A DNA stretch of 64,000 bases from contig DAOQAL010000002.1 in the NCBI GenBank assembly GCA_035353995.1, forward strand, positions 99,762-163,761, given 5' to 3'. How positions within the stretch are numbered: position 1 is the stretch's first letter; every line of letters starts with the position of its first letter. The notes under the pieces are model-generated. The model was not told where the DNA came from. It was given only the letters and a program-made list of their open reading frames with translations, and ran no database searches. The DNA comes from Minisyncoccota bacterium (GTDB lineage Bacteria; Patescibacteriota; Minisyncoccia; Phycocordibacterales; UBA9973). Shown here piece by piece: positions 25,974-53,585 of the stretch. Position numbers and translations under genes: made by a program.

Positions 25974-26144
25974 TTTTTATTATTTTTTTTGATATGTTAC
26001 AATAGCTCTTGCAGTAAATGTTTACTGCTTGTTCTTTATACTTTAGGAGTTCGTCCTTAAGAACGAATTCCAAGAGATATGGAACTTTTTTAATTTTCCT
26101 TATCTCTATCCAGCTCTATCTTTTTACTAAGATAGGGTTTGGAT

Positions 26145-26215
26145 GGGCGATTAGTTAAGTGGTATAACTACGGTCTCCAAAACCGTTGTCGGGAGTTCGA
26201 TTCTCTCATCGCCCG
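26145..26215 (+). tRNA. tRNA-Trp (anticodon CCA)
   Basis: Cloverleaf folded by hand. Acceptor GGGCGAT/ATCGCCC, anticodon stem ACGGT/ACCGT with loop CTCCAAA, and T-arm GGGAG-TTCGATT-CTCTC. The 3' CCA is not encoded. Confidence 0.85.
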
Positions 26216-26251
26216 CTACAACAAGCACAGGACAGCTTAATGCTGTCCGAA
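26211..26251. repeat. direct repeat copy 1 (tRNA-Trp 3' end plus downstream GGACAG-loop-CTGTCC hairpin)
   Basis: GCCCGCTACAACAAGCACAGGACAGCTTAATGCTGTCCGA recurs at 27291-27335 with 2 mismatches. Att-like. Confidence 0.55.
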
Positions 26252-26263
26252 AGCGTACTCGCG

Positions 26264-26358
26264 TTTCTCTCATCGCCCGCCTTCGCTCGCAGTAGCGAGC
26301 TACGGCGGGTAAAACCCGTTAGTAGTTCCGCGAAGGCGAGAAGGTATCATGTATTAAC
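26264..26358. other. partial duplicate of tRNA-Trp T-arm/acceptor (TCTCTCATCGCCCGCC) followed by GC-rich nested hairpins
   Basis: Sixteen nt identical to tRNA positions 26203-26218, then CCCGCC...GGCGGG enclosing GCTCGC-AGTA-GCGAGC, then CCTTCGC...GCGAAGG. G+C is far above the local background. Confidence 0.5.
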
Positions 26359-26430
26359 GACCCCATAGGTCTTGCCTCTGGGGTACTCTGGGGTAACTCT
26401 CGACCCCATAGGTCTTGCCTCTGGGGTACA
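26359..26430. repeat. island palindrome family, copies 1-2 (tandem)
   Basis: (C)GACCCCATAGGTCTTGCCTCTGGGGTA repeated twice back to back. Copy 1 carries an internal CTCTGGGGTA duplication. Confidence 0.7.
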
Positions 26431-26566
26431 GAAGGCCCGCTACACCTTGATTTATTTTCTAACTATGTTATTATGCAGATAATGATAGTTTTTTGACATT
26501 CGGTTTTATTGGTTTCCAAACGAGATAAATAATTGTCTTTTGTGGAAACCTTTAAAACCATAAAAA

Positions 26567-27160
26567 ATGAAAAGAATATTTTCAACATTAAGTCCAAAAT
26601 ATGTTTTGGTCTCTTTCTCCAAAGACGGAAAAAGAAAAAGAATAATTCTAAAAGAATTTGGAGTCTGTAGTATTGGCACATATGAAAACATAAAAGCCAT
26701 AGAAAGTGCCCTTACGGATTCCGGTGTTTATCTGACTGACTTGGTCAAGAAAACTATTTCTAGCACAGCTTTTAAATTTACAAGACAAAAAAAAGTTCAA
26801 CTATTCATTCAGATTTCAGCCTCTGATCTTGGCTTCAAAAATGGTGGTAGGTATAAGGATATTATTAACAGCATATTAGGTGCTGTGGTGATATTACGAG
26901 GGAGAAAATACATAGTAGAGTTTTGTCTTCCCGAAGTTGCCTTGTATTTACGTCTACAGTATAAAAATCAACCAGTAGAACCAATTGAAGTTGAAGAGCG
27001 AGTTGATGTTGTTATGGAGCCGATAAAAGGAGAAAGGAATGATTATGTTTTACGCCTAGTGCACGATACAGAAGGAATAGCTTTAGCAGGACATCCTGCT
27101 CATGAAAATTGTCCAAGATATTCCGGTGATAAATTTATTTTTTCTCTGCGTGCCAAGTAA
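26567..27160 (+). CDS. hypothetical protein (sole gene in the direct-repeat-bounded 1.08 kb unit)
   Basis: 197 aa ORF with no recognised motif. G+C is higher than host genes. Confidence 0.4.
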   Translation: MKRIFSTLSPKYVLVSFSKDGKRKRIILKEFGVCSIGTYENIKAIESALTDSGVYLTDLVKKTISSTAFKFTRQKKVQLFIQISASDLGFKNGGRYKDIINSILGAVVILRGRKYIVEFCLPEVALYLRLQYKNQPVEPIEVEERVDVVMEPIKGERNDYVLRLVHDTEGIALAGHPAHENCPRYSGDKFIFSLRAK

Positions 27161-27174
27161 TGGCTAGGTTCTAA

Positions 27175-27210
27175 GGGGTTGTTATTTTTTTACGATGACA
27201 ACCCTTTTTT
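27175..27210 (+). terminator. intrinsic terminator
   Basis: GGGTTGT ... ACAACCC stem followed by a T6 run, directly after the 26567 ORF stop. Confidence 0.5.
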
Positions 27211-27290
27211 ATTTCCCCAAACCAATAAATTCCCCAATACTAACCATAACTAAAGGATAGTATTTCAAAAGTTCTGAAATTCCTATACTA

Positions 27291-27335
27291 AGCCCGCTAC
27301 AACAAGCACAGGACAGATTAATGCTGTCCGATAAG
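27291..27335. repeat. direct repeat copy 2 (att-like)
   Basis: AGCCCGCTACAACAAGCACAGGACAGATTAATGCTGTCCGATAAG. Compare with 26211-26251. Confidence 0.55.
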
Positions 27336-27364
27336 TAGTTTTTAATTATGATATAATTTAATTT

Positions 27365-27982
27365 ATGAAACTTATAATTTTTGATTGGTCTGGAGTAATA
27401 AAAGATGGATTGGAGAGCAACTTGTGGATTTGTAATAAAATATTTGAAAAATTCGGAGTACCAACTATTTCACTTGAGGAATTTAAAGAAAATTATGAAC
27501 TTCCTTACATGAATTTTTTTAAGAAATATATTCCTAGTCTAACTCTTGAAGAAGAACGAATTATATATAAAAAATATATATTTGATATAAATTGTCCAAA
27601 ATCTAAATCGTGCTTAGGTATTATTGAATTAATTAAGAAACTAAAAGAAAATAATTATCACTTAGCAGTGGTAAGCTCTGATTTTCCAGGAACAATTTTT
27701 GCAGAAATAAAAGAGTATGGGTTGGAAAATATTTTTGATGATGTAATTACAGGTATATATAATAAACTCGAAGGTGTTAATAATGTTATAAAAAAAAGAA
27801 ATTTTGATTTAAGTAATACTTTTTTTGTTGGTGATACTAATCATGAAATAGAAGTGGCAAGACAGGCAGGTATAAAAAGCATAGCAGTAACTTGGGGGTT
27901 TTGTTCTGAGCAAAAACTTAAATTAGAAAATCCAGATTATCTTGTGCATAATTCAAATGAATTAGAAAAGATTCTTTTGTAA
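27365..27982 (+). CDS. HAD-superfamily hydrolase-like protein
   Basis: N-terminal IIFDWSGVI (motif I with DWSG rather than DxDG) and GDTNHEIEVARQAG (motif IV-like). Length 205 aa. Confidence 0.45.
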   Translation: MKLIIFDWSGVIKDGLESNLWICNKIFEKFGVPTISLEEFKENYELPYMNFFKKYIPSLTLEEERIIYKKYIFDINCPKSKSCLGIIELIKKLKENNYHLAVVSSDFPGTIFAEIKEYGLENIFDDVITGIYNKLEGVNNVIKKRNFDLSNTFFVGDTNHEIEVARQAGIKSIAVTWGFCSEQKLKLENPDYLVHNSNELEKILL

Positions 27983-28053
27983 ATCTTGTGTACATTGTGC
28001 ACTTTATAGATAAATTAAATCTACAATACTTATCCCCAAAAAAACAAAAATAA

Positions 28054-28080
28054 GCCCCCGCAAAAAAATTTTGCGGAGGC
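28054..28080. terminator. bidirectional terminator hairpin
   Basis: GCCCCCGCAAAA-AAA-TTTTGCGGAGGC, a 12-bp stem with one mismatch, flanked by A/T runs. It lies between convergent genes. Confidence 0.5.
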
Positions 28081-28142
28081 TTAAGTGTTTAAGAGTTAAA
28101 ATAATCTGGGAGATTATTTTAAGGTCCTCAAGTAATCAAGTA

Positions 28143-28943
28143 TCACTTCCTAGCGACCGACAAACCGAGATCGCTACTGCGGTGACTATCCCAGTAGCCG
28201 CCGACGTTCAGACCCCCGCCGTCAAAGAAGCCGACGTTGACGTGATCGCCGCCCGAGTCGAGGCTTGATGTGCGGACATAAATTCCGCCAAACAAGTAAA
28301 CGTCTCTGACTGCTTTGTAGGTTGTGATTGCCCAGGTGAATTCAGCAGAATTCGGTACAGTTTCAACATCGGAAATCAGGGTTTGCTGTTCTTCCCAGTT
28401 TTTAGAAGTTGATTCGGGGACAGGGTTCTTGCGAATCATGTACCATTTTGTTTCAACTTTGTCTTTCTGTGAAAAATTCTGATCAGCATACCATCCACCA
28501 TCTTTTGAGTAGAAGTAACCATTTTTCATGGTACGAATCTCAAGAAGAGACATTGGACGGTTGGGACCAGCGACAAGCATGTAACTGTTGTCACGGCACC
28601 ATTCCAGAATTTCTTGTGCAGGAACTGTTTCGCCGAACTTGGCAAGCTGTTCTTCGGTGTAAGTAACTCCTTTACGTGATTTCATCACGTCTTCAGGAGA
28701 AATGAAATCCTTACCGAGAATTGTGCGAACCAGTTCATAATCTGGAGCTTTCATGGAGAAACGCTTGATACCTGTAAGCAGGTAAGCAGCGAATCCAGGA
28801 TTCTCATTCAGAACCTGTGCACTTTCTTCTGTCAGTCCAGCCTTATTGTATTGGGCACGAAACGATTCGGTAGCTCTCTGTCCTTTCGGACTGTCTGCGG
28901 TTACCAGTGCAGACGTGTTCAATGACTTTTTCATCGACATCAT
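28143..28943 (-). CDS. hypothetical protein, compositionally foreign (~50% G+C)
   Basis: 266 aa ORF. The DNA is conspicuously GC-rich (e.g. 28150-28280) against an AT-rich genome. It has a Gly-rich C-terminus and no recognised domain. Confidence 0.45.
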   Translation of the reverse strand: MMSMKKSLNTSALVTADSPKGQRATESFRAQYNKAGLTEESAQVLNENPGFAAYLLTGIKRFSMKAPDYELVRTILGKDFISPEDVMKSRKGVTYTEEQLAKFGETVPAQEILEWCRDNSYMLVAGPNRPMSLLEIRTMKNGYFYSKDGGWYADQNFSQKDKVETKWYMIRKNPVPESTSKNWEEQQTLISDVETVPNSAEFTWAITTYKAVRDVYLFGGIYVRTSSLDSGGDHVNVGFFDGGGLNVGGYWDSHRSSDLGLSVARK

Positions 28944-28990
28944 CCTTTATTGGTTTTACCGAAATCGCTCGGCAACGGCTTTTCTCGTTA

Positions 28991-29043
28991 ATGAGATGAG
29001 CTTTTTAAGTCCTATAATATAAGGCATAAAAAGCTCATCTCAT
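28991..29043. promoter_or_regulatory. perfect 17-bp inverted repeat (ATGAGATGAGCTTTTTA / TAAAAAGCTCATCTCAT) enclosing a TATAAT box
   Basis: Seen directly, immediately upstream of the 28143..28943(-) gene. Candidate operator or hairpin. Confidence 0.4.
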
Positions 29044-29116
29044 GGAAGTGATATTTTAAAAGAACTCTTTCTATTATATCATATATAATGCTTTTGTCAA
29101 TAAACTATTTTGCATT

Positions 29117-29159
29117 ACCCCATAGGTCACCCCATAGGTCTTGCCTCTGGGGTAACTCT
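29117..29159. repeat. island palindrome family, copy 3 (with a 12-nt partial duplicate in front)
   Basis: ACCCCATAGGTC + ACCCCATAGGTCTTGCCTCTGGGGTAACTCT. Confidence 0.7.
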
Positions 29160-29303
29160 TTACTTTTAATAACATTCGTGGTATTGTACCATTACAATGG
29201 TTCTTTGAAATTGAACATGATTATTACTTGTTTGGATTACCTTGCACTTCCTTTGGGAGTTTGAAGTAATCCAAATGAGTATAAACAATTAAAGACAATA
29301 GTT

Positions 29304-29633
29304 ATGGAAAAATTAAAAAAATACCGACTAGGTAATCAGCCTACTGAGTATGAACTTGTTACAGAATATTTAGGGTGGCTTCCTGAAGACGCATCAAGTT
29401 GGTGGGACGTGTTCCAAATAATGGTTTCTTCTTCTGAAATTACAGGTAAAGAAATAACCATTACTAATCCTGAAAAAAATAAAAAAATTACAATTATTAT
29501 TGACCATAGAATTGTAAAAGATGCATTTCCCATGTCTTTTTTCGTGGAGGAGAGAGCAAAAAATTGGTATGATTTTTGTATTGTATCAAGTAAGGATAAA
29601 CCATCTGAAAAATTTATTATTCCACTTCACTAA
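29304..29633 (+). CDS. hypothetical protein
   Basis: 109 aa ORF with no recognised motif. It is preceded by a 10-bp inverted repeat (TTTGGATTAC ... GTAATCCAAA, 29231-29274). Confidence 0.35.
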   Translation: MEKLKKYRLGNQPTEYELVTEYLGWLPEDASSWWDVFQIMVSSSEITGKEITITNPEKNKKITIIIDHRIVKDAFPMSFFVEERAKNWYDFCIVSSKDKPSEKFIIPLH

Positions 29634-29688
29634 GTAGGGGGTATCCGAGCTTGAAGAGCTGGCATTTTTGTGTCAGCTTTTTTTATTT

Positions 29689-29720
29689 CTACATAGGTCT
29701 TGCCTCTGGGGTAACGGAGT
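29689..29720. repeat. island palindrome family, copy 4 (5' arm degenerate)
   Basis: CTACATAGGTCTTGCCTCTGGGGTAACGGAG. Confidence 0.6.
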
Positions 29721-29808
29721 ATTTTTCCATACTTGACTTTATCAATTTAAAGATGTATTATTAAACTGATATTTTATATAGTTCTTAACATTTAAAAAGG
29801 AGGTTTAA

Positions 29809-30408
29809 GTGAAAGATTTATTTGTCTGGCTTACCGTGATCACAATGACCACGTTTATTATTATTTATGTATACCAGATTTATAAGCATAAAATTTTTCC
29901 AGCTCTGTCTACTTGGATTATATTTCTTTGTGGAGTTGGCCTAAGTTTTGTTACTTATATTATTTCAGAAAAAAATGATTTAAGTTCTGGCGTATTAAAT
30001 ACCATAGATCTCCTGAACGTAGTAGTTGTAACTATCGCAATAATTCTTTGGGGTAAAAGAAGTCTACATCTTAAGCCTTTTGAAAAATGGTATTTAGTTG
30101 CTGTTGGTTTAATTATTTTTTATGGAATAATAACTGGTGATGCATGGAGTTCAAATATCTTAACTCAAGTATTAATTAGTGTTGGATATTTTCCAACCAT
30201 ACACGGTTTATTAAAAAGTAGGGTAAACACAGAATCATTCATTGGGTGGGGAATTAACTTGCTTGTTAGCTTTTTTGCCTTATACCCAGCATCGGTTAAT
30301 GGTAACCTGCTTGCAATAATTTATGCAACCAGAGCAGCCGTCCTTATCTCTGTATTATTAATAATAATGGTTTATTGTGAATTGACTAAAAAGAAAAAAC
30401 TAGCCTAG
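29809..30408 (+). CDS. polytopic membrane protein with GTG start and strong SD
   Basis: 199 aa with about 6 TM helices. AAGGAGGT lies 7 nt upstream of GTG, which is atypical for this genome. It is homologous to the 61313..61912(-) ORF (shared YQI.K, W, and Y..T/RKK tail). Confidence 0.5.
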   Translation: MKDLFVWLTVITMTTFIIIYVYQIYKHKIFPALSTWIIFLCGVGLSFVTYIISEKNDLSSGVLNTIDLLNVVVVTIAIILWGKRSLHLKPFEKWYLVAVGLIIFYGIITGDAWSSNILTQVLISVGYFPTIHGLLKSRVNTESFIGWGINLLVSFFALYPASVNGNLLAIIYATRAAVLISVLLIIMVYCELTKKKKLA

Positions 30409-30457
30409 TACCGAAAGGGAAAGGCTTTTTTTATTTTATTCTTATGTCTTTGATACT

Positions 30458-30494
30458 GAGTTACCCCATAGGTCTTGCCTCTGGGGTAACTAGG
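30458..30494. repeat. island palindrome family, copy 5 (longest: 14-bp arms)
   Basis: GAGTTACCCCATAGGTCTTGCCTCTGGGGTAACTAGG. Confidence 0.7.
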
Positions 30495-30538
30495 TTTTAC
30501 TTGAACAATCTTTTTTCTTCCTTTTCAAAAGTTGTCAG

Positions 30539-30575
30539 AGCCAACCCCATAGGTCTTGCCTATGGGGTTCTTACC
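30539..30575. repeat. island palindrome family, copy 6 (perfect variant)
   Basis: GCCAACCCCATAGG-TCTTG-CCTATGGGGTTCTTACC. Eleven-bp perfect arms with CTCTGGGG changed to CTATGGGG. Confidence 0.7.
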
Positions 30576-30708
30576 TCCGTATAAAATACTATTGATTTTT
30601 TTGTATAGTATGTTATACTTTTAGTAATAAAAGTTTTTTTAAAAAAGTGGTTTTTGGTTTTCATAGGAGATAAATTTTGTCTTTTACGAAAACCAAAAAC
30701 CTCTAAAG

Positions 30709-31422
30709 ATGAAAAAAATCGTTTTTATTTTTGCAATGATGATGACATTCTCATCTTTGCAATTTGTGTACGCACAGGAAAATGTCGTACAGAACTGGAA
30801 TTTCCAAGAAGATTCGGACAATGACGGACAAGGAGATTATTGGACTTCACTTTGCTCTCCGTCTGTTTTTTCATGGAGCATCGTATACGGTGTTCAGTAT
30901 GTAAAGTGCGATTCAGTGTATTGTTACTCCGGGTCATTGGTGCAATATTTTCCGGATTCAATAATGCCTGGAACGTATATGCTTGAATTTGATACGTATT
31001 GTAGCAGAATTCTATGGCCATTTGTTGTACTACATGATTACAAACTGTCTTTCATCGGCACGGTTGTGCCGTCGACATGGCAACACTACGAAATTACATT
31101 TACTTCGTTAGCTTGGATAAGCGGTGTCGGTTTTTTAGCTGAGAGTGCAATTTCTCAAATAAAAATGGACAATGTAAAGTTGTATTTGCTATATGGAGTA
31201 GGATGTGAAAAACAAAAAGTAAAGCAATTAAAATTCTACCCGAATCCGGTCACTGATTACGTAAATATTTATTCATACGAAAATAAAAGAATCAGTATCT
31301 ACGATGTCTCCGGAACAAATTTTGGTCATTTTGATTTATTAAATGGTCAAAACAAGATCAATATGAGTTTTCTACCGTCTGGAATTTACATATTAGACGG
31401 ACAGAAAGTTCTGAAGAAATAG
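30709..31422 (+). CDS. secreted Cys-rich protein with Bacteroidetes-type T9SS (Por) C-terminal sorting domain
   Basis: Signal peptide ending ...VYAQ. The C-terminus KFYPNPVTDYVNIYSYENKRISIYDVSGTNF ... LPSGIYILDGQKVLKK matches the T9SS CTD consensus. G+C is elevated and there is no SD. Confidence 0.6.
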   Translation: MKKIVFIFAMMMTFSSLQFVYAQENVVQNWNFQEDSDNDGQGDYWTSLCSPSVFSWSIVYGVQYVKCDSVYCYSGSLVQYFPDSIMPGTYMLEFDTYCSRILWPFVVLHDYKLSFIGTVVPSTWQHYEITFTSLAWISGVGFLAESAISQIKMDNVKLYLLYGVGCEKQKVKQLKFYPNPVTDYVNIYSYENKRISIYDVSGTNFGHFDLLNGQNKINMSFLPSGIYILDGQKVLKK

Positions 31423-31439
31423 GGGGAAGTGGGAAAAAG

Positions 31440-31472
31440 GGAGGTCTCAATCAAAATGAACCTCCTTTTTTT
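31440..31472. terminator. intrinsic terminator (bidirectional)
   Basis: GGAGGT ... ACCTCC hairpin plus T7 run, between convergent genes. Confidence 0.6.
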
Positions 31473-46775: not shown

Positions 46776-46803
46776 TAGCTAGCAAGGACGGTCCTTGCTA
46801 GTC
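46776..46803. repeat. second palindrome family, copy A (AGCTAGCAAGGAC-G-GTCCTTGCTAG)
   Basis: Seen directly. Eleven-bp perfect arms. It overlaps the stop codon of the 46798 ORF. Confidence 0.7.
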
Positions 46804-47334
46804 AAAATATTCAGGATTCTCTAAATGTATAAGAGCCATAGCAACAGCAGTTTTATTAAAATCTGTTCTATTCATTCTTCCTTTTGTTAATATTTCAATT
46901 ATACCTCCATGTTCTCCTAATTTTTCATGTTCAGTAAGACCAGCTAATTTCGTGGCCTGGCTACCATCTAATCCTTTATTCAATATTCCATCAATAACTT
47001 TTTTTGGCCATTCACATGCAGAAGAAAGTCCTATGTGAATCTTTTTACCATCAAAAATAGCACAAGCAGCAACTTCCATATAGCCTGATTTTGTATATGG
47101 AACTTCCATCAATCCACCTTCAATACCGAAGCCAAAATCATTATCTTTATAAGATTGTTTAGCTCTATCAACAGCCCCCGAAACTGTTTCTTTTATATTT
47201 TTAGGGTGACCAAATTCTTCAATATTTACAGTTACACCAAAAACTTCTGCATCCTTAAACATTGGATAATTTTTTAATAAATCAGAAACAGCATTTATTT
47301 TAGTTTTATTTTTTGAGCCAACACCAATTTTCAT
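46798..47334 (-). CDS. inosine/xanthosine triphosphatase-like (YjjX/DUF84 family) protein
   Basis: 178 aa. Pattern V.IEEFGHP ... GAVDRA ... IEGGL ... GGIIEILTKG ... TAVAMAL is collinear with YjjX-family non-canonical purine NTP phosphatases. Confidence 0.55.
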   Translation of the reverse strand: MKIGVGSKNKTKINAVSDLLKNYPMFKDAEVFGVTVNIEEFGHPKNIKETVSGAVDRAKQSYKDNDFGFGIEGGLMEVPYTKSGYMEVAACAIFDGKKIHIGLSSACEWPKKVIDGILNKGLDGSQATKLAGLTEHEKLGEHGGIIEILTKGRMNRTDFNKTAVAMALIHLENPEYFD

Positions 47335-47450
47335 AAAGTAAGTATATCAGAAATATAAATTAAACTTAATATTCTACAAAAAGATGTATCTAGGATACTA
47401 TATAACTAGAGCTAGAACTTTTTGATTCCTTACCCTGCAATATTATTTTT

Positions 47451-47496
47451 AGCTAGCAAGGACGGTCCTTAGCTAGCAAGGACGGTCCTTGCTAGT
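47451..47496. repeat. second palindrome family, tandem copies (20-nt unit AGCTAGCAAGGACGGTCCTT x2.3) in the divergent promoter region
   Basis: Seen directly, between 46798(-) and 47545(+). Confidence 0.7.
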
Positions 47497-47544
47497 TGCA
47501 TCGTAAGTCTATTATTTTATATTGCTTAGCGATATAATATAAAT

Positions 47545-48705: not shown

Positions 48706-48733
48706 TAGCTAGCAAGGACCGTCCTTGCTAGTC
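48706..48733. repeat. second palindrome family, copy C (TAGCTAGCAAGGAC-C-GTCCTTGCTAG)
   Basis: Seen directly, downstream of the S8-like gene after a short GC-rich patch (48607-48700). Confidence 0.7.
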
Positions 48734-48744
48734 GATAAATAATT

Positions 48745-51210: not shown

Positions 51211-51284
51211 TGGCTGGGAGACTAGGAATCGAACCTAGATTAAAGGCTTCAAAGGCCTCTGTCCTACCGTTAGACGATCTCCCA
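51211..51284 (-). tRNA. tRNA-Gln (anticodon TTG), CCA encoded
   Basis: Hand-folded from the reverse complement: TGGGAGA-TC-GTCT-AACGGTA-GGAC-A-GAGGC-CTTTGAA-GCCTT-TAAT-CTAGG-TTCGATT-CCTAG-TCTCCCA-G-CCA. Confidence 0.8.
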
Positions 51285-51420
51285 ATATTAATATTTTTAT
51301 AGAAGATATACTGAATTATATACAAAAGACGATCTCCCAATAAATACTAAATAAATATAACATATTTGACTTTAAATCGGAATATTAAATTTTAGAGTGA
51401 ATTTTTTTTAAAAAAATAAG

Positions 51421-51895: not shown

Positions 51896-51934
51896 AAATA
51901 AAAAAGCTTGGTCGTAATTAGCCAAGCTTTTTTG
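51896..51934. terminator. terminator hairpin, copy A of a 40-nt direct repeat (AAATAAAAAAGCTTGGTCGTAATT[A/G]GCCAAGCTTTTTT)
   Basis: Hairpin AAAGCTTGG-loop-CCAAGCTTT flanked by A and T runs, downstream of the purB stop. Confidence 0.65.
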
Positions 51935-53444: not shown

Positions 53445-53547
53445 GTTTTTGGTTTTTAGGTGAATGAATGATTTTATGGGAATATATATGGTTGTTTAAG
53501 AACTAAATGTGATTTTACATTAACATTTAATTAAGTAGGTTGTCAAA

Positions 53548-53585
53548 TAAAAAAGCTTGGTCGTAATTGGCCAAGCTTTTTTAGT
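53548..53585. terminator. terminator hairpin, copy B of the 40-nt direct repeat
   Basis: AAATAAAAAAGCTTGGTCGTAATTGGCCAAGCTTTTTT, upstream of the purB promoter region. Confidence 0.6.

Follow-up and report, generated by a model that had tools for sequence, protein, structure and literature searches.

How did a single-gene interval come to lie between two copies of a repeat that starts inside a tRNA gene, and what kind of enzyme could have put it there? Genomes of the candidate phyla radiation (CPR, Patescibacteria) are tiny and the routes by which they gain genes are little known; the question is posed by the tRNA-Trp locus of a Minisyncoccota bacterium (contig DAOQAL010000002.1, of which a 64-kb stretch, hereafter the window, was analyzed). 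At this locus, a direct repeat, GCCCGCTACAACAAGCACAGGACAG[C/A]TTAATGCTGTCCGA, encloses a 1.08-kb unit with one gene, an open reading frame (ORF) of 197 codons termed ORF197. We propose, with moderate confidence, that the interval is a stack of inserted segments placed between the 3' end of tRNA-Trp and its original flank by conservative recombination at a hexanucleotide core, GCCCGC, with the recombinase acting in trans and likely being a large serine recombinase (LSR).

The repeat pair and the segments between its copies

An initial annotation of the window had described a 41-bp repeat with two mismatches and a second copy at 27291-27335. The repeat is real, but its extent and count needed correction: the two copies align over 40 nucleotides (nt), with 39/40 bases identical, the second copy lies at 27292-27331, and the sole mismatch falls in a hairpin loop. 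The pair is not expected by chance, as no match was found in any of 100 shuffles of the sequence. Alignment with the tRNA 3' end bore out that copy 1 begins within the final 5-6 nt of tRNA-Trp; its hairpin, GGACAGC-TTAAT-GCTGTCC, occupies 26230-26248. The hexamer GCCCGC, with which both copies open, occurs five times in the 64 kb, and four of these occurrences, all on the plus strand (26211, 26275, 26435, and 27292; cores A to D), fall within 1.09 kb. The interval therefore divides into three segments (alpha, beta, and gamma; Table 1), and the earlier description of it as a single-module unit does not hold.

Because segment alpha opens with a copy of the native flank and its hairpin, the 40-nt repeat exists. 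The last 34 nt of alpha (26247-26280) are 94% identical by blastn to the 3' ends of a structured unit, described below, in two related loci (L065 and L072), and include the partial copy of the tRNA 3' end that had been noted earlier (26262-26280, 18/19 identical). A covariance model of the unit gave only 12.1 bits (E 0.66) on 26227-26280, so that alpha is best taken to hold a truncated remnant of the unit, of which the window carries the 3' end only. We considered a plain 64-nt tandem duplication of the tRNA end and flank as the source of alpha, and rejected it: 26247-26280 contains a 14-nt insertion, AAGCGTACTCGCG, that is typical of the unit 3' ends in L065 and L072.

The other parts listed in the initial annotation (GC-rich hairpins, two palindromes, a third CCCGCTACA, the ORF, and its terminator) are all present. 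In segment beta, the two 29-nt palindromes are identical and bracketed by AGAAGG, and the third CCCGCTACA spans 26436-26444. The GC-rich block at 26217-26460 folds well beyond shuffled sequences (z = -5.1). Segment gamma has the makeup of a complete cassette, with a promoter-like site, one gene, a terminator, and a conserved end that we term P-type for reasons given below.

Table 1. Positions of features at the tRNA-Trp locus of the window, with the related structured unit
Feature	Position	Strand	Description
tRNA-Trp (CCA anticodon)	26145-26216	+	ARAGORN; Rfam 66.6 bits
Core A (GCCCGC)	26211-26216	+	3' end of tRNA-Trp
Repeat copy 1	26211-26250	+	core GCCCGC, TACAACAAGCACA, hairpin, and GA
Segment alpha (64 nt)	26217-26280	+	copy of native flank and hairpin, joined at CCGA to the end of a structured unit
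Core B	26275-26280	+	end of segment alpha
Segment beta	26281-26440	+	GC-rich nested hairpins (26281-26345), two 29-nt palindromes, core C
Core C	26435-26440	+	end of segment beta
Cassette gamma (857 bp)	26441-27297	+	promoter-like site, ORF197, terminator, conserved P-type end, core D
Promoter-like site	26447-26474	+	directly after core C
ORF197	26567-27160	+	cargo gene of cassette gamma
Intrinsic terminator	27173-27207	+	3' of ORF197
Conserved P-type module end	~27235-27291	+	ATACTAA..TAAC..AAAAGTTCTGAAATTCCTATACTAA
Core D	27292-27297	+	end of cassette gamma
Repeat copy 2	27292-27331	+	module end and core, then native tRNA-Trp flank; hairpin 27311-27329
Remainder of hypervariable region	27298-31470		HAD hydrolase, ORF266 (minus strand, 45-60% GC), ORF109, ORF199, ORF237
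Palindrome (GTT)ACCCCATAGGTCTTGCCTCTGGGGTAAC	26358-26386, 26401-26429, 29127-29155, 29688-29712, 30461-30489, 30542-30570		all in the same orientation
Structured unit, species			L027, L033, L037, L039, L047, L049, L050, L061, L065, L070, L072, L078
Structured unit, example	L050:4111-4241	-	

Conserved cassette ends and a structured unit in related species

A scan of species genomes with the 23-nt 3' half of tRNA-Trp gave 65 syntenic loci, in which Ddl, Alr, L33, tRNA-Trp, miaA, and aroA are conserved. tRNA-Trp and miaA are as close as 35 nt in L020 and more than 3 kb apart at the other extreme. In tblastn searches, Ddl, Alr, L33, MiaA, and AroA of the window do match in these loci, whereas the window genes between 26.5 and 32.6 kb have no match in any of the 65. 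These data support the view that the 3' end of tRNA-Trp is a hot spot of site-specific integration.

Repeat copy 2 has on its left a stretch of ~60 nt (ATACTAA..TAAC..AAAAGTTCTGAAATTCCTATACTAA|GCCCGC) that recurs at 14 sites in 10 species. The conserved end takes the form AAAAGTTCTGAAATCC(N9)AAGCCCGC and finishes in AAGCCCGC. All 14 sites are on the strand of the tRNA, 594-2932 nt downstream of tRNA-Trp, and finish in AAG(C/T)CCGC, with CGC as the invariant bases at the junction. The consensus junction between cassettes, TCAAGCC-CG-CAGTTGA, has dyad symmetry about its CG.

Occupied and empty forms of the site can be compared in four species that have a native flank, TCGTGAAC, in common. This flank is joined straight to tRNA-Trp in L058 and separated from it by cassettes in L071, by a structured unit and three cassettes in L039, and by a unit, two cassettes, and a second unit in L050. 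One cassette occupies position 1 in the L050 array and position 2 in the L039 array. In L050, moreover, ~180 nt from GCCCGC onward are present twice, one copy on either side of a 2.75-kb insert with no recombinase gene; the second copy is preceded by ...CATCAA|GCCCGC and followed by the native flank. This duplication has the same geometry as that of the window, in another species.

The cassettes of the related arrays measure 0.55-2 kb, mostly contain a single gene, and are co-oriented with tRNA-Trp. Their cargo includes DUF805, a short-chain dehydrogenase, NUDIX, an APH-type kinase, DUF695, a PnuC-like transporter, and proteins of unknown function; no recombinase was found among the cassette ORFs scanned with Pfam. 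Cassettes in L039, L050, and L071 start with a promoter-like TTGACA right after the core. An internal repeat in L071 was examined as a further core-bounded repeat and rejected, being a duplicated promoter and leader.

ORF197 is cargo of this kind and not mobility machinery. The initial annotation had suggested replication or mobilization as the function of the 197-aa protein, which we could not substantiate: the protein has no sequence match in Pfam, PHROG, PADLOC, or the PDB, and comparable cassettes carry unrelated cargo. It is clear that nothing ties ORF197 to recombination, replication, mobilization, or transfer. A word-indexed protein search returned only ORF197 itself; exhaustive phmmer searching recovered a family of 74 relatives of 130-240 aa with the common motif LCPxEVGPQLRLQYxxQP. 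A single-sequence AlphaFold model was of no use (predicted local distance difference test score 31), and a Foldseek comparison with the PDB gave nothing significant. The family is unnamed, and we tentatively assign it a fold weakly resembling C-type lectins and FGE; this fold call is tentative because none of 41 aligned family members matches Pfam.

The second recurrent component is a hitherto undescribed conserved element with strong covariation. Sixteen such GC-rich units of ~100-160 nt, from 12 species (Table 1), lie after tRNA-Trp or bound cassettes, each of them closing with (G)ACCGATTCTCTCATCGCCCGC, which copies the 3' end of tRNA-Trp exactly. Once the alignment was fitted to the model, pairing held in 94% of cells, and compensatory changes were present at 15 of the 18 pairs, a level that no shuffle out of 500 attained; in slid controls, only 33-53% of cells paired. 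A conserved 5' motif, GAG(G/A)AATCG, is able to pair with the tRNA-like CGATTCTC. The units match no Rfam family, and a Rfam search of the region and the related loci returned tRNAs only. We considered whether they might be tRNA-like genes and rejected this, since the acceptor-like 5' strand is not conserved. In species L027, a hairpin related to that of repeat copy 1 follows tRNA-Trp.

Could the repeat have arisen with no mobility at all? Slippage or unequal crossing-over might have duplicated the tRNA trailer and terminator locally, on both sides of a resident gene, or the hairpin might be a generic terminator or repetitive extragenic palindromic (REP) element. Other hairpin pairs of the window do bracket single genes (a 38-nt pair at 51896 and 53545; palindromes at 46.8-48.7 kb), and the repeat hairpin scans as terminator-like on the minus strand. 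Where REP elements and generic terminators have many dispersed intergenic copies, however, this hairpin, like the 40-mer itself, occurs twice in the window, the 64 kb of this genome that could be read, in none of 185,579 species genomes (pattern scan), and once in JGI metagenomes, on a contig of the same locus (L007), which allays the concern in the initial annotation that it might be a common intergenic motif. To the left of copy 2 stands a module end that is conserved between species, relatives show both occupied and empty alleles, and ORF197 and its neighbors are missing from all 65 syntenic loci. We regard an origin without mobility as very improbable.

Serine recombinases at the core and a proposed mechanism

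The stacking of inserted segments that we prefer calls for a recombinase, and candidates were found at the same core. The metagenome contig L007 has an identical tRNA-Trp, as does L013, a longer contig with the same protein that represents a sister strain. In L013, a 6.2-kb island begins directly after ...CATCGCCCGC and ends in ...GATAGTCCGC, and is followed by TACAACAAG...CGCCCGCCTTC, 100% identical to 26217-26284 of the window. The island lies at the exact left edge of repeat copy 1, so that in this genome copy 1 of the window is an empty, attB-like acceptor for an enzyme of the same population. An LSR of 577 aa, with the domains Resolvase, Recombinase, and Zn_ribbon_recom, is encoded by the island together with defence-type cargo (DUF4145/PD-T7-4 and PDC-S39-like proteins). 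The two junctions of the island have just CCGC in common, and joining its ends yields an attP whose inverted arms match perfectly over 9 bp (AATCTTTGA..TCAAAGATT). With the module end in 10 species and the L050 duplication, this island supports the initial view of an att-type duplication, in a layout best taken as tandem insertion at one site.

A complete 9.7-kb island with an LSR of the same family and the same P arm, ending in GCCCGC and carrying SIR2, DUF87, and Trypsin_2 genes, is found in L079, and homologous island ends follow tRNA-Trp in L018, L023, and L077; in these four loci, as in L013, the LSR island adjoins the 3' half of tRNA-Trp. The family has at least 499 relatives, and a search among viral contigs found none. 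One relative, P0220, sits in a different, conjugative-looking context without a tRNA. The LSR reading frame crosses attL into the tRNA-Trp gene (L013:23-1756, minus strand; L079:10001-11722), and integration would consequently alter the final ~20 residues of the enzyme.

The cassette ends resemble the sites of these enzymes in the spacing of an outer motif, GTTC. Its distance from the core is 17 nt both in the cassette ends and in the LSR P arms of L013 and L079, as against 12 nt in tRNA-Trp. In serine integrases, the motif bound by the zinc ribbon is 5 bp nearer the center in attB than in attP (PMC3783163). The same 5-bp half-site shift is found here, as a sequence pattern alone and one spotted post hoc. 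Because the offset in the cassette ends matches this rule, repeat copy 2 can be read as a putative attR-like junction composed of a P-type arm, the core, and native flank. The T-arm and acceptor 3' strand of tRNA-Trp (GGGAGTTCGATTCTCTCATCGCCCGC) would be the B-type half-site of the acceptor.

Insertion at a tRNA 3' end is more familiar from islands with tyrosine integrases. On such an account, an attP sharing a 40-bp (or 53-bp) identity block with the chromosome was integrated and the integrase was later lost, leaving a remnant bounded by attL and attR that resembles a cis-mobilizable element (CIME). The hallmark of tRNA-targeting islands is a pair of direct repeats that takes in the tRNA 3' end (PMC4383910). 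Long identity blocks are normal in this class, the 19-nt copy at 26262-26280 opens in the T-loop, a usual crossover position, and integrase-less, att-flanked derivatives exist among CIMEs. In such islands, however, what is repeated is the 3' portion of the tRNA that the insertion displaces, starting at the anticodon loop or T-loop, whereas here just 5-6 nt of the tRNA, GCCCG(C), fall within the 40-nt repeat. The 19-nt copy is itself the 3' end of the conserved structured unit, with the 14-nt insertion common to L065 and L072. No tyrosine recombinase (Phage_integrase) was found in the window or in the related arrays scanned with Pfam, the sole recombinases seen at the core are serine recombinases, and the conserved end has the 5-bp offset of serine integrases. 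A tyrosine-integrase origin seems to us unlikely.

We therefore return to stacking by a recombinase of the serine class, for which we propose the following scheme. Every junction would be the core GCCCGC, with the point of exchange probably at the CG inside it, and the T-arm and acceptor of tRNA-Trp would supply the half of the attB or attI-like acceptor that stays constant. A cassette would comprise a promoter, one gene, a terminator, and the conserved ~60-nt end serving as a P-type half-site; in circular form, it would recombine conservatively with the acceptor, and repeated events would lead to stacking. In the window, the inserted DNA would earlier have been cut from an array of the same species, beginning at the tRNA core, and its re-entry would have displaced the recipient's own flank to the far side. 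As the window has no recombinase, the enzyme must act in trans, and it is most likely an LSR of the family that the sister strain carries at this very core. What the sequences themselves document is the junctions, the conserved end, the occupied and empty alleles, and the lack of a recombinase in cis. We infer that such an enzyme recognizes the cassette end; the order of events is likewise our reconstruction, and the cassette may still be mobile.

Several observations weigh against this scheme. No recombinase gene was found in the 1.08-kb unit, in the 64-kb window (Pfam), or in the cassette arrays examined. Segment beta has no relatives among 67 related loci (blastn and covariance model) and no Rfam match, and the start of gamma (TTGAT 10 nt from the CG) deviates from the cassette consensus (TTGAC 4 nt from the CG). 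For this species, neither the empty allele (tRNA...GCCCGC-TACAACAAGCACAGGACAGATTAATGCTGTCCGATAAGTAG) nor the circular junction was found, the latter expected as ...CTATACTAAGCCCGC joined to TACAACAAG...GTCCGAAAGCG (...TTCCTATACTAAGCCCGCTACAACAAGCACAGGACAGCTTAATGCTGTCCGAAAGCG). The GTTC offset was noticed after the fact, and the middle 15 nt of the cassette-type end are unlike those in the P arm of the known islands. Lastly, the identity to the right of the core (34 nt) exceeds that of a single canonical LSR event. Canonical serine integrases leave a shared core of 2 bp and do not recombine an attB-like with an attR-like site. The 34-nt identity therefore demands an extra assumption, either a source array in the same species or a loosely read right half-site; the former is the simplest account, and the L050 duplication needs it too.

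Some of these points would sit more easily with an enzyme encoded elsewhere in the chromosome, whether Xer-like or other (compare the integrative mobile elements exploiting Xer, IMEX, and dif modules), or with an integron-like integrase, the LSR islands merely co-using the hot spot. The cassettes lack a recombinase, carry a conserved 3' site, mostly hold a single gene, and are co-oriented and stacked, and their end is unlike the LSR-island P arm in its middle part. They also resemble integron arrays and clusters of attC sites lacking integron-integrases (CALINs) in having one acceptor and a content that differs between close relatives. Against this, no integron integrase adjoins the array: where integrons have IntI beside attI, the genes upstream here are those of Ddl, Alr, L33, and the tRNA. 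The sites are not dif-like and have neither the R''/R' boxes of attC (RYYYAAC/GTTRRRY) nor its folded-hairpin architecture; as read from the sequence, the module end and the palindromes do not present such boxes in the required order. The acceptor is a tRNA 3' end, the cassettes appear to bring their own promoters, and the junction core and outer GTTC are common to genuine LSR att sites. We consider a host or integron-like enzyme improbable, to about the same degree as a tyrosine integrase.

Among characterized systems, the staphylococcal cassette chromosome (SCC, SCCmec) offers the closest working parallel to the proposed stacking by an LSR. Large serine recombinases place SCC elements at the 3' end of rlmH (orfX), a conserved housekeeping gene. 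The elements accumulate in tandem, each between direct repeats in which the integration site is contained, and some (the ccr-less pseudo-SCC elements) depend on an enzyme in trans. The serine class, the tandem elements, and the recombinase-less modules are alike here: four cores bound the three segments, related species have arrays, and an LSR lies at the same core in the sister strain. The likeness is one of recombinase class and layout. The differences are a tRNA target in CPR bacteria, single-gene cassettes of 0.55-2 kb, and the conserved ~60-nt 3' end.

Serine integrases such as the Listeria A118-type LI integrase, Bxb1, and phiC31 share with the islands a dyad-symmetric attP, an integrase gene that abuts attL, and the 5-bp motif shift (PMC3783163). 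Compared with the LI structure, the outer motif here is a few bp further out, and the right half of the acceptor varies freely between species. An LSR gene inside the element, as in elements of this class, is absent from the window and present in the allelic L013 island and in L079. Where attL and attR of such elements share a short core only, the junctions of the window share 40 nt; canonical serine integrases do not yield products with identity over 34-180 nt past the core.

A more far-reaching possibility, which we put forward tentatively and consider doubtful, is a CPR system of integron-like gene capture in which the tRNA-Trp 3' end is a permanent acceptor, an LSR acting in trans stacks and exchanges single-gene cassettes with P-type ends, and the structured unit serves as a portable second acceptor, or as a tRNA-mimic RNA, that moves along with the array. 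Literature searches on serine recombinases and tRNA or genomic islands of CPR bacteria (Patescibacteria) returned no account of such arrays. Our results point to the interval from tRNA-Trp to miaA as a defined locus at which many species exchange small accessory and defence genes, at junctions set by sequence and with a candidate enzyme family now named. If the link to the LSR is true, an integron-like layout would be run by a different enzyme class, and the known recombinases would gain a family that targets a tRNA and whose right half-site seems permissive, a matter of practical interest for integrase engineering.

The remaining variable region and other possible insertions in the window

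The variable region continues beyond repeat copy 2, 3' of which lies the HAD hydrolase gene (27365-27982), and may or may not be part of the same cassette system as far as 31470. This remainder carries four further copies of the palindrome ACCCCATAGGTCTTGCCTCTGGGGT. The six copies of (GTT)ACCCCATAGGTCTTGCCTCTGGGGTAAC have a single orientation, all fall within the variable region, and stand between single genes (ORF109 and ORF199); the palindrome may represent either a REP-like element or recombination sites of a second kind. In L062, a hairpin with the same AGGTCTTGCCT center and other stems adjoins a cassette end. The 266-aa ORF on the minus strand (28143-28943) has a GC content of 45-60% in a window of ~28% GC, and no match in Pfam, PHROG, or PADLOC; it is probably recently acquired DNA.

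Two observations concern the tRNA-Trp gene and its leader. Two independent Logan assemblies end at the same 15 nt of tRNA-Trp before the T-arm (L002:1-15 and L006:5920-5934). These breaks were set aside as uninformative, the likely reason for them being that co-occurring CPR species share the tRNA sequence (3' half). The leader between rpmG and tRNA-Trp (26011-26108) matches the Rfam TD-2 RNA at 28.6 bits against a gathering score of 48.7, which is probably chance.

Elsewhere in the window, a 38-nt pair of terminator-like hairpins with 97% identity (51896-51933 and 53545-53582) flanks a single Lyase_1 gene 0.6 kb from tRNA-Gln, in a geometry resembling that of the tRNA-Trp repeat unit. The palindrome TAGCTAGCAAGGACGGTCCTTGCTAG occurs four times (46776-46810, 47450-47504, and 48706-48740) and brackets the single genes NTPase_I-T and Peptidase_S8. 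The first 15 nt of tRNA-Gln, a minus-strand gene (GACGATCTCCCAATA on the plus strand), are present at 51274-51288 and 51329-51343, the duplicate lying 55 nt upstream of the gene; this may be the scar of another insertion. Just after rpmA, from ~0.3 kb past the right end of the window (named genes from ~1.2 kb), contig L010 carries a phage-like run (L010:15244-21221) with AAA_24, Phage_rep_O, ParB-methylase, and DNA methylase genes, and a contig of another assembly ends exactly there.

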